A DNA stretch of 64,000 bases from Chlamydiota bacterium (lineage in GTDB: Bacteria > Chlamydiota > Chlamydiia > Chlamydiales > Parachlamydiaceae): NCBI GenBank assembly GCA_013289325.1, contig JABDAE010000002.1:1199-65198 (forward strand), in the 5' to 3' direction. A model generated the notes under the pieces. That model made no database searches. It had not been told where the DNA came from and worked only from the letters and a program-made list of their open reading frames with translations. Shown piece after piece: positions 13,217-34,782 of this stretch (its first letter is position 1; every line of letters starts with the position of its first letter). The position numbers were made by a program, and so were the translations under genes.

Positions 13217-14197
13217 TTAGGCATAATGGAGTTTCAATGTTCCACTTTGAATCTCCTGAAGAGTCTTGCGATTCGCGTGGACTCTAGTCTCTGATGGAGG
13301 ATGAGAACTAAACAACTGAATCCCTTTTTTCACAAGGCTTGCCTTGCCTCCACTTTCGCCTTTTTCCATGGCCACAAATTTTTTTTGAAGCCATACCGAA
13401 GCCAAAGGGTTATATCCGGCTGAATGCGCAAGGAGCATTCCATATTTATCAGCTTCAAATTCGTTGCATCGACTATGGGATTGTATAAACAAATGGGAGG
13501 CAAGTGAGCACGCTACATCAATTCCTTTGCCAAGAGCTTCTTTTGCGTGTTTATTTACCTTTGTTTGTGGACAAGTATTATCATCTTGTGTGGCTCTTCG
13601 TTTAAATAACAAGTGAGGCAAGACAGTACTTGTTATTTTTCCTGCACAAAATGTCAAAATTTTTAGCTGCATCTTCATCGCCCCATGCCCTGCTGCAGCA
13701 TGGATAATTTCATGTCCCATGACCGCAGCAATTTTATCCTCAAATGTGATGTCAGGAAATTCTCTATCAAAATCCGAAGGTTCTTCAAGTGCTTGAATCA
13801 TGGCTGTTGTGATCACGGTAAATCCGCCGGGAAGACAATAGGCGTTTGTGGTGTCATCATCATGCAGCACTCTCACCTGATAGGTGATATTTTTTCGCTG
13901 CACTTGTGCTACAAGATTATCGAATACAGTTGATACTTGAGTATTCCATGTTGCATTAGTGCACATTTGCTCTTTTGGACAAACACTATCGTAGCTTACT
14001 TTACCTACTAGCCTCTCAACTGCAGTGGGAATGAGTCTGATTTGTCTTTTCTCTGTAATTGGATTTTTGGGCAGCACTAAATTATAAATCTTGATCGCTA
14101 AATTGCGAATTTTTATCCCCACATGTTGCATCCCTTTATAGGGACGGCTATTTACAACCTGCTTGACAATGCATGGACTAAAGCTACCTATTTTCAT
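13217..14197 (-). CDS. M48-family zinc metallopeptidase
   Basis: HEIIHAAAGH (HExxH) motif with a downstream E (EFEADKYG), typical of the M48/HtpX-like fold. Confidence 0.7.
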   Translation of the reverse strand: MKIGSFSPCIVKQVVNSRPYKGMQHVGIKIRNLAIKIYNLVLPKNPITEKRQIRLIPTAVERLVGKVSYDSVCPKEQMCTNATWNTQVSTVFDNLVAQVQRKNITYQVRVLHDDDTTNAYCLPGGFTVITTAMIQALEEPSDFDREFPDITFEDKIAAVMGHEIIHAAAGHGAMKMQLKILTFCAGKITSTVLPHLLFKRRATQDDNTCPQTKVNKHAKEALGKGIDVACSLASHLFIQSHSRCNEFEADKYGMLLAHSAGYNPLASVWLQKKFVAMEKGESGGKASLVKKGIQLFSSHPPSETRVHANRKTLQEIQSGTLKLHYA

Positions 14198-14280
14198 CTC
14201 TACCCCTCTTTTTTTTCTCGCTCTCTTTTATTTTCCGGAAGTATGAATCTCTTTTGTTAAGATTTGATAAACTGCTTAAA

Positions 14281-14443
14281 CCTAAATCCGGCAGTTGGAG
14301 ACGGCAACTTAACGCAATCTCTTGAACCAGAATCATTTGCAATGGGGTGGTCCTTCACCCTCTGGGAATGTCCCACCCCATTGCAAAGTGATTCTAATTC
14401 AAGATCTTGCATTAATTTGCCATCTCGAACTGCCGGATCTAGG
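14281..14443 (-). mobile_element. 163-bp palindromic MITE-like element, copy 1 (intergenic; TSD TTAAA)
   Basis: Runs cctaaatccggcag...ctgccggatctagg. The 5-mer ttaaa occurs at 14276-14280 and 14444-14448. The strand given is the one carrying the ETAVRD reading mode. Confidence 0.9.
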
Positions 14444-14501
14444 TTAAAAAAATTATGCAAGAGGTTCTTTAATAGCGCTTTGACTTAATTGATGATACGC
14501 C

Positions 14502-14942
14502 TTAATATTTTTGACAGTATTTTTTCACCCTACTCACAGTATCTAAGATCTTCGGGGTGTTTAAGAATACACTCTTATATATCTCTGAAAGGTCCTCCAA
14601 AAGATATTCATGAGCAATTGCATTTCTTGTTTCTCTAATTTTTGAAAAAATTTCAGCACTTTCTATAATCCCAAGCTTCTCTGCTCGATTGATACTATCT
14701 CGAACGGTCTCTTGCGGTTCATAATCGAGTTGGTTGATAAGTCGAAAAATTTTTCTTATGAGCAGATCGCTTAACCGTGCAAAACGACTGGTTAAAGCCT
14801 CTAAGTGTATGAGTTCTAAAAATGAGTACTCCTTTTTTAGTCCTATAGATTGACACTTCAAAAACGTTTCAGAGAGAACATCTGATGCATGGTTTAAAGC
14901 TTTAAGTTCCTTCATTAGGAGTTTTTTTTCATTCTCAGTCAC
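14502..14942 (-). CDS. hepT: HEPN-domain toxin (HepT/DUF86-like)
   Basis: Rx4H motif in ETRNAIAHEY. Overlaps the upstream nucleotidyltransferase gene by 4 nt. Confidence 0.8.
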   Translation of the reverse strand: MTENEKKLLMKELKALNHASDVLSETFLKCQSIGLKKEYSFLELIHLEALTSRFARLSDLLIRKIFRLINQLDYEPQETVRDSINRAEKLGIIESAEIFSKIRETRNAIAHEYLLEDLSEIYKSVFLNTPKILDTVSRVKKYCQKY

Positions 14943-15220
14943 AAAGCAATCCCCTCTTCGAGTGCAATTTTTACAAATGGATCCGAGTCGTCTTTTGCGA
15001 TCGTAATATCGATCCGCTGCTCTTCAATCTGTTTAAAAATTTCTGTCTTGATTGCGGCTTTATCTAAAAAGGTTAAAAAATTTGAAAAAATTAACAAGTC
15101 GATATCCCCACCTTTTTTTTCATCATGCACTCTAGAGCCAAAAAGAAAAATTTGAGCATTTGGATCCAGTCTATGAACAGCTGACTTGATAATTAAAACT
15201 TCATCTTTCTTAAGTCGCAT
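14939..15220 (-). CDS. mntA: Minimal nucleotidyltransferase antitoxin (MntA-like)
   Basis: GSRVHDEKKGGDIDLLI (GSx..DxD) motif. The ATG at 15220 is preceded by GGAGGAGG; the track start at 15241 is a TTG. Confidence 0.8.
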   Translation of the reverse strand: MRLKKDEVLIIKSAVHRLDPNAQIFLFGSRVHDEKKGGDIDLLIFSNFLTFLDKAAIKTEIFKQIEEQRIDITIAKDDSDPFVKIALEEGIAL

Positions 15221-15283
15221 TTGCCTCCTCCTCTCCACCAAATAAATTTAGCAAGTTATGAATTCTTTAAGCAATCATAAATA

Positions 15284-15302
15284 CGAAACTGCCGGATCTA
15301 GG
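15284..15302 (-). repeat. Solo terminus of the 163-bp element (19 nt) plus the same flank as copy 1
   Basis: cgaaactgccggatctagg+ttaaaa (15284-15308) versus cgaactgccggatctagg+ttaaaa (14426-14449). Confidence 0.8.
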
Positions 15303-16283
15303 TTAAAACACCCAGCCTATATTGACAGCAGCGCCAACATCGTTTCTTGTTTGCTTGCCAAATAAGTGTTGATAAAGAGGCACCTGTATCCCTCCTTGTA
15401 TAAAGAAACGCTTGATCGTCGCAAACGTTAAAGAAGGGGTGACATAGATGACATTGCCACCTGAATTGTGATCTGTCTTTCCATCGATCCGATTTCTATC
15501 TGCCAAGGTCCCACTTCCTTCAATGAGCCAGCTAAGGTACCAATCGTCACTGCTTACAATCATCCTTCCAATACCCCCTTGATAAAGAAATTGGCTTCCA
15601 AATCTTGTGCCTTGATTAGAGCCGTTCCATATCCCCCCTGTAGAGGCAAAGTAATACCAATCAAATGTCATGCGATTATAGGTAAATCCAAGAAAGCAGC
15701 TGCATTGTCCATCTCCTGTTGGTGGGCTTTTCTTGGTAGAACCCGTTGGGAATGTCACATTAGCCACAACGCTTGCCTCATCGGAGCTGTCTTTTTTATT
15801 TTTTGTATAAAAGCCATACTCGACCTGAAGAAGTAAGTCTTGTATGCCGCTGCTATGGTCTTCACCTTGGCGGAGTTTCACGGCATCGGGCGCTGCAAAA
15901 AATAGGGAAAAGGTATCGGTCACCCCATACACAAAAGTGGGATTGATAATAGCTGCGTATTGTTTATGTCCTTTGATATAGCTTCCGACTAAAATTGCCT
16001 GCAGCTGCCCTTTGTCGACAAAATTTTGGCCAAAAGCAATAAGAGGGCCTGGCTGCTGGGAAGTGGGAAAGGCTAAAAACCCAATTTTTAAAGGCTCATC
16101 ATCTTTCTTTTCTTCTTGATCTTTCTTATCTTCCTCTTTTTTGGAATCACTTGAGTCTATTGAACCGTCCTTTTGACATTTGTCCCCATCCTCAATAGCC
16201 TCAAGATTAAAATGTTGCCAAGCAAAAAAAGTTGTCAAAAAAACAAGTGCTCGTACATATTTGGCAGGTAAATGCATTGTCAT
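15303..16283 (-). CDS. Putative outer-membrane beta-barrel protein
   Basis: Signal-like N-terminus and an acidic/Lys low-complexity linker. Alternating beta-strand pattern. C-terminal ...NIGWVF with terminal Phe. The specific family is not resolved. Confidence 0.45.
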   Translation of the reverse strand: MTMHLPAKYVRALVFLTTFFAWQHFNLEAIEDGDKCQKDGSIDSSDSKKEEDKKDQEEKKDDEPLKIGFLAFPTSQQPGPLIAFGQNFVDKGQLQAILVGSYIKGHKQYAAIINPTFVYGVTDTFSLFFAAPDAVKLRQGEDHSSGIQDLLLQVEYGFYTKNKKDSSDEASVVANVTFPTGSTKKSPPTGDGQCSCFLGFTYNRMTFDWYYFASTGGIWNGSNQGTRFGSQFLYQGGIGRMIVSSDDWYLSWLIEGSGTLADRNRIDGKTDHNSGGNVIYVTPSLTFATIKRFFIQGGIQVPLYQHLFGKQTRNDVGAAVNIGWVF

Positions 16284-19688: not shown

Positions 19689-20663
19689 ATGACGTGGAAA
19701 GGATTTTCTTTTGCATTAGCTGCCTGCATGTTGTGGGGATTAATTTTTATTATTCCTCCCTCTTTGAAGGGATTTGCCCCCTTGGAAATCGCATTAGGCA
19801 GGCACGGCGTCTATGGCCTTATCTCCTGCTCTATTTTTCTACTGACGGGCCGCAAATCGATACGAAAGCATCCTCTTCATGTATACGGTAAAGCCCTTTT
19901 ATTTTCTTTAATTTGCAATATCGTCTACTACAGCTGCGTTGTGATGGGCACACTCTACGCTTCTCCATCCATTACAGCCCTCATTTTGGGAACAAGTCCT
20001 GTGCTTATCTCATTTTATGGAAACTGGATGAAGAGGGAATGCAGCTTTAAAAGTCTTATTATTCCCTCCCTCTTGATATTAGCAGGGCTTGTCCTCATCA
20101 ATGTCCCCGTTTTTTCAGACAAAGAGATCGCCTTAGATAAACCTTTTTACCTCCTTGGCGTTATCGCCGCATTTACAGCGCTGATTGCATGGAGTTGGTA
20201 TGTCGTGGTCAATTCCTTATTTCTTAAAAGTAATCCAACTGTCAGCTCCCAAGATTGGTCGACATTGATTGGAGTTGCCACTTTTTTTTGGGTTTTGATT
20301 GTAGGTGGGTGTTATGAAGGATGGCTAGGAGAAGCTGGGTGGAGCAAATTTTTAGAGCCTTCGCAAAGTCTTGCGATATTTGTCGCAGGGTGCGCTGTTC
20401 TTGGCATATTTTGCTCTTGGATCGGGGCGTTTTTATGGAATAAAGCCTCCTCTATTCTTCCCGTCTCTCTTGCAGGAGAGCTAACAGTTTTTGAAACTAT
20501 TTTCGGCCTTCTTTATTTTTATCTGCTTGAAATGAGGATGCCGCCAATGCTAGAGCTTATGGGCATTGCTCTAATTCTTTCTGCCATTCTTTACGGGATC
20601 AATGCCTTTGCGCTTCAAACCCCTCCGACAGAATTGAGCGGGAAGTTAGGGTCTGTTAAATAA
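19689..20663 (+). CDS. EamA/DMT-family transporter
   Basis: About 10 predicted TM helices in two repeated halves. 324 aa. Confidence 0.7.
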   Translation: MTWKGFSFALAACMLWGLIFIIPPSLKGFAPLEIALGRHGVYGLISCSIFLLTGRKSIRKHPLHVYGKALLFSLICNIVYYSCVVMGTLYASPSITALILGTSPVLISFYGNWMKRECSFKSLIIPSLLILAGLVLINVPVFSDKEIALDKPFYLLGVIAAFTALIAWSWYVVVNSLFLKSNPTVSSQDWSTLIGVATFFWVLIVGGCYEGWLGEAGWSKFLEPSQSLAIFVAGCAVLGIFCSWIGAFLWNKASSILPVSLAGELTVFETIFGLLYFYLLEMRMPPMLELMGIALILSAILYGINAFALQTPPTELSGKLGSVK

Positions 20664-20671
20664 ATTTTTTC

Positions 20672-20700
20672 TTGAAAAAGTAATATGACCATGTTAATAT
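20672..20700 (+). promoter_or_regulatory. Sigma70-like promoter of vapBC-1 with direct repeats TAATATGAC
   Basis: TTGAAA (20672-20677), 17-nt spacer, TAATAT (20695-20700). The 9-mer taatatgac occurs twice (20681-20689 and 20695-20703). Confidence 0.45.
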
Positions 20701-20722
20701 GACTATATACGGAGGTAGCGTT

Positions 20723-20953
20723 ATGGATAAAACTATTCAAGCTGGAAAATTTAAAGCTGAGTGCCTGAAGATAATGGATGAAGTCCAAAATTCAGGAAGA
20801 AGTATCGTCATTACAAAAAGGCGGGTACCCATTGCGCGTTTATGCCCCATAAAGAAAAAACATCGATCACTGTTTGGAATTATGCGCGGTATGATCCACA
20901 TTCAAGGGGATTTGATTGAGCCAATCGGAGAAGATTGGGATGCCAATAGTTAA
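20723..20953 (+). CDS. Phd/YefM-type antitoxin (VapB-1)
   Basis: GGAGG lies 7 nt before the ATG at 20723. MDKTIQAGKFKAECLKIMDEV... is typical of Phd/YefM N-termini. Overlaps the PIN gene. Confidence 0.7.
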   Translation: MDKTIQAGKFKAECLKIMDEVQNSGRSIVITKRRVPIARLCPIKKKHRSLFGIMRGMIHIQGDLIEPIGEDWDANS

Positions 20954-21392
20954 CCATTTACAGCAACATAAACTATTACTTGATACGCATATCTGGATCT
21001 GGCTTATTGAAGGAGATTCTAGATTATCACAAGAATTGTGTCACGCAATCGACCGCTGTCAAAATAGGGATGGGATTTTGATTTCTGCAATTTCAATTTG
21101 GGAAGTAGGAATGCTCGTTCAAAAAAAGAAGATATCGATTGAAACAGATTGTTTAGACTGGATTCAAATGGCTTTAGGTCAGCCCGGCGTAAGTCTTGTG
21201 CCAATCTCGCCCCGTATTGCAGTTCAAAGCACTCGTTTGCCAGGCGAGTTGCATGCAGATCCTGCAGATCGCATTTTGGTTGCGACTGCGTACGAGGAGA
21301 ATGCCACTCTTGTCACATGCGATGAAAAACTGATCCATTATGGCCACAATTACTTGGTATCAGTGCACGATCCTAGAAGGAATGTAAAATGA
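20940..21392 (+). CDS. vapC: PIN-domain toxin VapC-1
   Basis: LLLDTHIWIWL N-terminal acidic PIN motif. ILVATA...TLVTCD C-terminal motif. The stop overlaps the tsaD start (ATGA). Confidence 0.8.
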   Translation: MPIVNHLQQHKLLLDTHIWIWLIEGDSRLSQELCHAIDRCQNRDGILISAISIWEVGMLVQKKKISIETDCLDWIQMALGQPGVSLVPISPRIAVQSTRLPGELHADPADRILVATAYEENATLVTCDEKLIHYGHNYLVSVHDPRRNVK

Positions 21393-34360: not shown

Positions 34361-34375
34361 CCTAGAAACGGCAGT
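34361..34375 (+). repeat. Solo 15-nt terminus of the 163-bp element
   Basis: cctagaaacggcagt lies immediately after the vapC-2 stop codon and 20 nt from the tRNA-Ser 3' end. Confidence 0.6.
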
Positions 34376-34394
34376 GTAGAATAGCTTGATAGAT

Positions 34395-34481
34395 TGGAAG
34401 AGGTGAGATTCGAACTCACGTCACCATTGCTAGTGAATCTGTTTTCGAGACAGACGCATTCGGCCACTCTGCCACTCTTCC
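34395..34481 (-). tRNA. tRNA-Ser (anticodon CGA), long variable arm, no encoded CCA
   Basis: Reverse complement: GGAAGAGTGGCAGAGTGGCCGAATGCGTCTGTCTCGAAAACAGATTCACTAGCAATGGTGACGTGAGTTCGAATCTCACCTCTTCCA. Acceptor GGAAGAG/CTCTTCC. Anticodon stem TCTGT/ACAGA with loop CTCGAAA. T-arm GTGAG-TTCGAAT-CTCAC. Confidence 0.85.
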
Positions 34482-34619: not shown

Positions 34620-34782
34620 CCTAAAAACGGCAGTTGGAGACGCTAACTTGACACAATCTCTTGAACCAGAATCATTTGCAGTGGGGCGGTCCTTCACCAA
34701 TCGGGAATGTCCCGCCCCACTGCAAAGTGATTCTAATTCAAGATCTTGCGCCAATTTAGCATCTCGAACTGCCGTTTCTAGG
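34620..34782 (-). mobile_element. 163-bp element, copy 3 (intergenic; TSD ATCAT)
   Basis: atcat occurs at 34615-34619 and 34783-34787. Confidence 0.9.

Follow-up and report, generated by a model that had tools for sequence, protein, structure and literature searches.

In the draft genome of Chlamydiota bacterium GCA_013289325.1 (2.92 Mb, 198 contigs, 40.9% G+C), a predicted MntA/HepT-like toxin-antitoxin (TA) pair lies between a full copy of a palindromic miniature inverted-repeat transposable element (MITE) and a short solo end of the same element, with both ends running into the same flanking nucleotides. On balance, we regard this solo end as probably the relic of a second, separate MITE insertion at a TTAAA target that holds the stop codon of the adjacent gene, which codes for an outer-membrane beta-barrel-like protein. 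The locus lies in the window C2:1199-65198 (JABDAE010000002.1), i.e. the whole stretch of 64,000 nucleotides analyzed here; coordinates without a contig name are window positions, C-numbers are contigs of this genome and G-numbers are genomes of relatives. A first-pass annotation of this DNA had proposed that the TA cassette entered, or can leave, by recombination at the element terminus, with element ends acting as landing pads for such cassettes. The evidence presented below points to a more ordinary explanation. The features of the locus are:

14276 to 14280: TTAAA, left target-site duplication (S1) of MITE copy 1, with identical 5-mers on both sides
14281 to 14443, plus strand: MITE copy 1, full 163-nt palindrome of the GGATT/GGATC-end subfamily (nhmmer 186 bits, model positions 1-163)
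14444 to 14448: TTAAA, right target-site duplication (S2) of copy 1, then an A run (from the sequence)
14502 to 14942, minus strand: predicted HEPN/HepT-like toxin gene (146 aa; RNAIAHEY, i.e. Rx4HxY; PF01934 23.1 bits, cut-off 23.5; NF047751 22.1 bits, cut-off 60)
14939 to 15220, minus strand: predicted MNT/MntA-like nucleotidyltransferase antitoxin gene (93 aa from ATG; open reading frame (ORF) 14939-15241, with a TTG alternative at 15241)
15284 to 15302, plus strand: right terminus of the element, standing solo (exact over 16 nt; also CGA, with one extra A)
15303 to 15307: TTAAA flank of the solo terminus (S3), holding the barrel stop codon (from the sequence)
15303 to 16283, minus strand: outer-membrane beta-barrel-like protein gene (326 aa, C-terminus ...GWVF; homologues at most 51% identical, few with PF13557)

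The recurrence of the junction, as pointed out in the first pass, is borne out: CGAACTGCCGGATCTAGGTTAAAA at 14426-14449 and CGAAACTGCCGGATCTAGGTTAAAA at 15284-15308 are identical in 24 of 25 positions, the second having one extra A, and the exact 16-nt terminus AACTGCCGGATCTAGG stands at both 14428-14443 and 15287-15302. The second junction does abut the barrel gene, whose stop codon (15303-15305) lies inside the TTAAA next to the terminus. The stretch 15287-15302 is a solo inverted repeat: all 16 nt match exactly and are followed by TTAAA, nhmmer finds just this 16-nt end, and neither a terminus scan nor nhmmer finds a left terminus between 14449 and 15283. The form of the solo junction with the extra A, CGAAACTGCCG, is unique in the genome and the cassette DNA is likewise single-copy. 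Two unrelated loci, C63:2465 and C20:25928, carry the 22-mer made up of the 16-nt terminus and its 6-nt flank as well.

The element itself is a near-perfect palindrome of 163 nt with arms of 63 nt and no coding capacity. Of the 192 paired copies in the genome, 146 measure exactly 163 nt, and the ends have the form CCTAG/AAACGGCAGTT ... AACTGCCG...TAGG. Strict matches to the terminus number 490 genome-wide, with 373 inside full copies; overall, about 187 copies are full and around 100 termini are truncated. Insertion generates a 5-bp target duplication of the pattern WTNAW, with the same 5-mer on both sides in 167 of 190 full copies, and a few 5-mers dominate these 190 copies: ATAAT (37), TTAAA (34, or 18%), TTTAA (28) and ATTAT (21), the sixth base being A in 28%. 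A 3-bp TNA duplication combined with an extra terminal-repeat base was considered and rejected, because flanks identical over 5 bp (167/190) are hardly less frequent than flanks identical over 3 bp (177/190). Terminal variants are also few, with GTTTC at 217 ends, GTTTT at 113, GGATC at 50 and GGATT at 39; GGATC is the right end of one subfamily, being preceded by ATCTCGAA in 45 of the 50 cases.

This combination of a narrow target preference with few end variants makes look-alike junctions common, and together with one chance A it can account for the 24-nt identity of the two junctions. Two termini with canonical flanks share an identical 16+6-mer with p = 0.0094. The 45 same-orientation terminus pairs within 1.5 kb of each other are thus expected to yield 0.42 identical 22-mer pairs, and the 80 within 3 kb are expected to yield 0.75. 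Two identical close junction pairs are observed, namely the cassette locus and a partial tandem MITE on C124. Since 0.42-0.75 coincidences are expected, one matching junction pair in the genome is unremarkable, and for the genome as a whole the recurrence of the junction does not clearly exceed chance. Nine of the 50 GGATC ends are flanked by TTAAA and four by TTAAAA, with two of those four lying at the unrelated loci on C20 and C63. The argument of the first-pass annotation, that an independent insertion would bring its own target duplication whereas here the flank is duplicated too, is accordingly weak: the shared flank consists of a preferred target, TTAAA (34 of 190 copies), and a single A. 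Beyond this locus, the calibrated null (p = 0.0094 per terminus pair), along with about 30 solo ends and 10 abutted pairs, offers a yardstick for similar claims on this MITE family.

Isolated ends of this kind are a regular feature of the genome. Excluding contig edges, we counted 83 partnerless termini, of which 32 are short solo termini (<=30 nt, spanning 11-30 nt) with canonical flanks. Several solo termini are the ends of insertion-sequence (IS) fragments, as on C28 and C96; because the IS and the MITE have just about 16 nt in common, a 16-nt relic can also derive from an IS. In seven cases the solo end directly adjoins the outer gene's stop codon, as it does at the barrel gene and at the vapC gene considered below; the reason is that TAA or TGA forms part of the target 5-mers. 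Six in the set (C8:27865, C23:1130, C41:9066, C80:3809, C148:4138 and C10:19643) give the inner ORF its last residues and stop codon, and the resulting read-through ORFs have element-stump C-termini, e.g. ...NCRF and ...LPFL.

These observations are consistent with the following course of events, in which the order of the steps and the deletion are what we infer. A second IS1380-related 163-nt MITE would have inserted at the TTAAA containing the TAA stop of the barrel gene, and a later deletion would have taken the rest of this copy along with its left duplication, leaving the 19 nt at 15284-15302. Copy 1 would be an insertion of its own into another TTAAA, which lies 58 nt downstream of hepT, and possibly came about by a local hop within the GGATC subfamily. 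The MNT/HEPN pair would simply be resident between the two target sites, with no mechanistic tie to the element. The extra A, which makes the solo end a non-identical copy of the copy 1 junction, argues for such a history. The first-pass annotation had itself mentioned, as an alternative, a second copy that was mostly lost; this alternative fits better than the recombination that it preferred, given how common solo termini and decayed tandem partners are in the genome.

Several points weigh against a separate second insertion. For this specific pair, independent ends would imply a coincidence of about 0.4-0.9%, and a local hop of the second copy one of about 5%. All three 5-mers (at 14276, 14444 and 15303) are TTAAA, and both right ends have the minority GGATC variant, which makes up 8% of ends. 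The hypothetical empty site, comprising the barrel stop, TTAAA, 78 nt and the M48 peptidase start, has a tidy operon spacing, as is predicted by a history confined to a single site. Further, a weak arm-like stretch (p ~0.015) comes right after the inner TTAAA, and the G+C content of the cassette, 6-8 points below that of its neighbors, is compatible with later acquisition.

A single-site history of this type finds its context in the abutting element ends of the genome. Ends abut exactly 5 nt apart on 10 occasions, with no other spacing between 0 and 60 nt:

Abutting pairs: C1:73554-73575, C8:27859, C27:14048, C30:15866, C36:19597, C47:7601, C77:7103, C94:4871, C97:2603 and C141:3442

One partner is truncated (11-77 nt) in eight of these ten. 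In at least four pairs, those on C1, C77, C141 and C47, the stump reproduces the end of like polarity from its full neighbor. The variants copied include unique or rare ones (that on C1 is found nowhere else and that on C77 is a rare one, 49/52), so local duplication of a terminus with its target duplication does occur. This suggests that the abutting pairs are tandem dimers or partial tandem duplications of the element plus its target duplication, which later decay. At the cassette locus, one TTAAA between the barrel and M48 genes could similarly have taken two tandem elements, either by using the target duplication a second time or in the form of a sister dimer, with positions 1-144 of the second being replaced or interrupted by the 834-bp cassette, for instance as filler DNA from repair of an unstable abutted-palindrome junction; in a variant of this proposal, the second element was itself a cargo-carrying derivative. 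Either way, just the distal 19 nt of the second element would survive. Such a nested origin draws on the ten pairs at the single 5-nt spacing and on the locally copied stumps, and it explains the three TTAAA 5-mers and the shared GGATC variant with no appeal to coincidence. It would also give a place to a possible trace of the left arm of a second element, for which the two inter-element segments compare as follows:

14450 to 14474, plus strand: weak likeness to positions 26-47 of the MITE arm, which may be what is left of another element's left arm (Smith-Waterman score 23)
15221 to 15283, minus strand: mntA upstream region, 63 nt, with no MITE likeness (score 17, p 0.32) and no consensus promoter

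The likeness at 14450-14474 has an empirical p of ~0.015 against 60-mers of the MITE-masked genome, though with nhmmer alone it is not significant (E = 5.3), and hence amounts to a hint. Against the nested origin, what survives in all eight decayed tandem pairs is the end adjoining the shared 5-mer, and there is no foreign DNA in any of them, whereas here it is the distal end that survives, with 834 bp of non-element DNA in between. Moreover, no left terminus follows the inner TTAAA, and the scheme needs a rare replacement event. We consider it an unlikely alternative to the separate insertion that we favor.

The outer 12-16 nt of the MITE are common to an IS1380-like insertion sequence. On C28 (L019/L030, 20192-21390), a 5'-truncated transposase ORF (20240-21385) ends 30 nt from the terminus C28:20192. 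This transposase fragment is cut off by an IS66-like gene, and its terminus is identical to the outer 16 nt of the MITE. A complete IS of 1813 bp with CCTAAAAACGGC ends is present in a relative (G060:C135; L032 207-2019) and encodes a transposase of ~540 aa that matches PF13701 with 64 bits (cut-off 34.7) and has NF033539 as its top NCBIfam match with 134 bits, below the cut-off of 180. No intact transposase of the IS1380-like family was found in the assembly. With terminal repeats, a target duplication and a cognate IS all in evidence, the element fits a MITE derived from an IS1380-like insertion sequence. Within the same bacterial family, 11 of 46 genera carry the MITE family, with 72-82% identity and a length that is always 163 nt; we found no paper on a Parachlamydiaceae MITE. 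Elsewhere in the genome, a PIN-domain gene fragment at C61:9803-10018 has an internal stop and a full MITE end inside, and looks like a toxin gene disrupted by the element. These by-products of the analysis, i.e. the rule for target choice, the abutting pairs in which a sister copy has decayed and the parent element of IS1380-like type, are perhaps worth more than the cassette from which the analysis started.

The IS1380 connection brings in a further explanation, namely that the 1022 bp from 14281 to 15302 moved as one non-autonomous unit, akin to an ISEcp1 unit or a mobile insertion cassette (MIC). An IS1380-type transposase acting in trans would have skipped the inner right end in favor of the outer one, thereby making the TTAAA copies at 14276 and 15303. 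There is a precedent in ISEcp1, an IS1380-family element that mobilizes adjacent DNA via alternative right ends and leaves 5-bp duplications (PMC10100714). The terminal repeat here is indeed that of an IS1380-like IS (truncated at C28:20192, full at 1.8 kb in G060), and TTAAA stands on both sides of the 1022-bp unit (14276-14280 and 15303-15307), the same 5-mer also flanking copy 1 internally. However, the outer duplication is explained equally well by copy 1's own duplication and a 14-18% coincidence, and the inner TTAAA would still need a chance match. Genome-wide, 16 of 135 left-right terminus pairs have matching outer 5-mers against 13.6% expected, i.e. at chance level and with no signal of composite transposons. 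The single-copy state of the cassette offers no evidence of movement, and the assembly has no detectable intact transposase of this family to act in trans. We hence judge it very improbable that the block moved in this way. A stronger version sees the TTAAA-flanked block of MITE, TTAAA, mntA-hepT and solo right end as a functional non-autonomous cargo transposon that spreads the TA pair, with the inner end skipped as in ISEcp1; this too strikes us as quite improbable. Were it true, the 24-nt repeats would also permit precise loss of the cassette, and solo chlamydial ends would be latent capture points for neighboring genes.

The recombination scheme put forward in the first pass, when spelled out, would mean that a small circle entered by Campbell-type recombination, homologous or site-specific, at the terminus and its flank, that the process is reversible and that element ends are general landing pads; it implies an empty site in which the MITE is joined directly to TTAAAACACCC, with no cassette. 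In its favor, the 24/25-nt direct repeat brackets exactly the cassette and allows a low-frequency 834-bp deletion that would restore a simple MITE insertion, and the cassette is lower in G+C than its surroundings. Set against this, there is no recombinase in or beside the cassette: the interval 13.2-16.3 kb has no recombinase ORF, and with paralogous cassettes and PIN loci being unbracketed the locus does not resemble an integron-like or att-type system. The repeat is imperfect, and its 24 nt are about as short as RecA-dependent exchange allows. The genome has no second cassette with such a bracket, the partial tandem MITE on C124 being the only other close identical pair.

The proposed generality was also confronted with the other TA loci and with the neighbors of solo termini. 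As claimed in the first pass, a second TA pair in the window, vapBC-2, ends on a solo terminus: it consists of Phd/YefM and PIN genes, and its stop TAA lies inside TTTAA, which is followed by CCTAGAAACGGCAGT at 34361-34375.

34361 to 34376, minus strand: second solo terminus, of the left-end type, with the vapC stop in the TTTAA flank on the outer side and tRNA-Ser on the inner side

It is nonetheless no parallel to mntA-hepT, because vapBC-2 sits on the outer, target side of the terminus, as the barrel gene does, whereas mntA-hepT sits on the inner side; the geometry is thus the opposite of that at mntA-hepT. The tRNA-Ser gene (34395-34481, minus strand) lies between this 16-nt solo left terminus, 19 nt from the tRNA 3' end, and a full MITE at 34620-34782; the 5-mers flanking this bracket differ (TTTAA and ATCAT). 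Two further mntA-hepT cassettes in the genome (on C60 and C75, with 42-57% protein identity) have no terminus within kilobases. Across the genome, 3 of 12 PIN or MNT-HEPN loci lie within 300 nt of a terminus against 9.8% of random 400-bp segments, an enrichment that is not significant (binomial p ~0.1); moreover, two of these three TA loci are the ones from which the idea arose. Around the closest mntA-hepT homologues of MITE-bearing relatives, 1.5 kb on either side is free of termini, and these homologues are not bracketed. A distant mntA-hepT pair in another genus (G065:C114; L029 1507-2356) has a full 163-nt MITE 10 nt after hepT and no solo end; this position echoes that of copy 1 here and probably reflects insertion at 5-mers that contain stop codons.

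The neighbors of solo termini genome-wide, which the first pass had expected to include accessory genes, are mostly housekeeping genes, with neighbors such as tilS-like, aldehyde dehydrogenase, dnaG, metG, sucC, phosphoketolase, ABC transporter and TatD. Accessory-type neighbors besides the two cited TA cases are a HipA-like gene 329 nt away, one XRE-family gene and two DUF4143 ATPases. Thus, the genome-wide tests of TA proximity, paralogues and neighbors lend no support to entry or exit of cassettes at termini or to ends as landing pads, and we hold the scheme to be highly improbable. If element ends did capture and release cassettes, they would constitute a route of gene flux in environmental chlamydiae, which are intracellular and have few obvious vectors, and would link an abundant MITE to the spread of TA systems.

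Returning to the cassette, its content had been described as only the mntA-hepT operon with its own promoter region. The first part stands, in that the 834 nt from 14450 to 15283 hold only these two ORFs. The promoter lacks such backing: neither a sigma-70-like site on the minus strand nor a terminator was found in 14150-15400, and transcription of the pair may continue from the barrel operon. The cassette genes are a distant predicted MNT/HEPN (MntA/HepT-like) TA pair, as judged from the presence of the motifs combined with low family scores. The type VII architecture is apparent in the RNAIAHEY motif of the toxin, the FGSRVHDEKKGGDIDL motif (GS...DID) of the antitoxin and the 4-nt overlap of the ORFs (14939-14942). 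The mntA product matches PF01909 (NTP_transf_2) with 32.1 bits (cut-off 21), PDB 1no5 (HI0073) with E 2e-5 and NF047752 with 21.8 bits (cut-off 60); no PDB homologue of HepT was found by sequence. Among the curated HepT and MntA models PF01909 alone is passed, PF01934 falling just under its cut-off and NF047751 and NF047752 far under theirs, though the NCBIfam HepT and MntA equivalogs are the top matches for the two proteins. In type VII HepT/MntA systems the toxin is an RNase that is neutralized by AMPylation. The cassette has 34-36% G+C against 41-45% around it.

The gene on the far side of copy 1 completes the setting:

13217 to 14197, minus strand: M48 peptidase gene, its start 84 nt from MITE copy 1

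The thiolase, barrel, mntA, hepT and M48 genes all share one strand. Barrel homologues in 40 relatives are at most 46% identical and none is syntenic; a large protein database (5.8 billion sequences) has nothing above 51% identity, the names of the proteins found there pointing to Parachlamydiaceae-like chlamydiae, and an exact-protein look-up yields no second contig. The M48 peptidase similarly has no close orthologue in the 40 relatives, the best match being ~45% over part of M48. Because neither protein has a close orthologue there, the barrel-to-M48 interval as a whole, and not the TA pair alone, is lineage-specific. No empty or ancestral barrel-M48 site was found in the collections searched, which hold no close relative.

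Of the known systems with which the locus may be compared, the predicted pair itself resembles the type VII MNT-HEPN/MntA-HepT modules (HI0073/HI0074; Shewanella SO_3165/SO_3166) in its antitoxin-then-toxin order with a 4-nt overlap, in the GS...DxD motif of MNT and the Rx4HxY motif of HEPN, and in its best database matches being MntA, HepT and HI0073. It differs in being distant (NCBIfam 22 bits vs a cut-off of 60, with the Pfam HepT-like score just short). The MITE is like the Rickettsia palindromic elements and other hairpin MITEs in its high copy number, fixed length, palindromic form and presence both at gene ends and inside genes; unlike them it combines clear terminal repeats with a 5-bp duplication, and an IS1380-like IS is its cognate.

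As for cargo-bearing units, the locus has in common with ISEcp1/IS1380 units (PMC10100714) the relation to an IS1380-like transposase, the 5-bp duplication and a layout in which an element with its left and right ends is followed by adjacent genes and then by a second right end, with the same 5-mer on both outer sides. Unlike in those units, no transposase is encoded in cis, a 163-nt MITE forms the left module, the outer end is a true terminus as opposed to a weak surrogate, and there is neither a second copy nor other evidence of movement. The MICs of the Bacillus cereus group, in which passenger genes are flanked by IS231-type ends (named in PMC3129680 and PMC6542083), are comparable in having transposase-free passenger genes between the ends of an IS family; the cassette here differs in that it has an element end on just one side, so that the other would need to be borrowed from the neighboring MITE.

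The closest counterparts of the solo end under the separate-insertion history that we favor are the solo inverted repeats and partial copies that are recognized IS-related objects in ISfinder/ISsaga annotation (PMC3129680). As in those, a terminal repeat with a target-type flank stands with no partner, and about 30 such relics accompany the high-copy MITE in this genome. What sets the present one apart is a full copy 834 bp away with the same end variant and the same 5-mer, and it is because of this neighbor that the solo end takes on the look of a duplicated junction.

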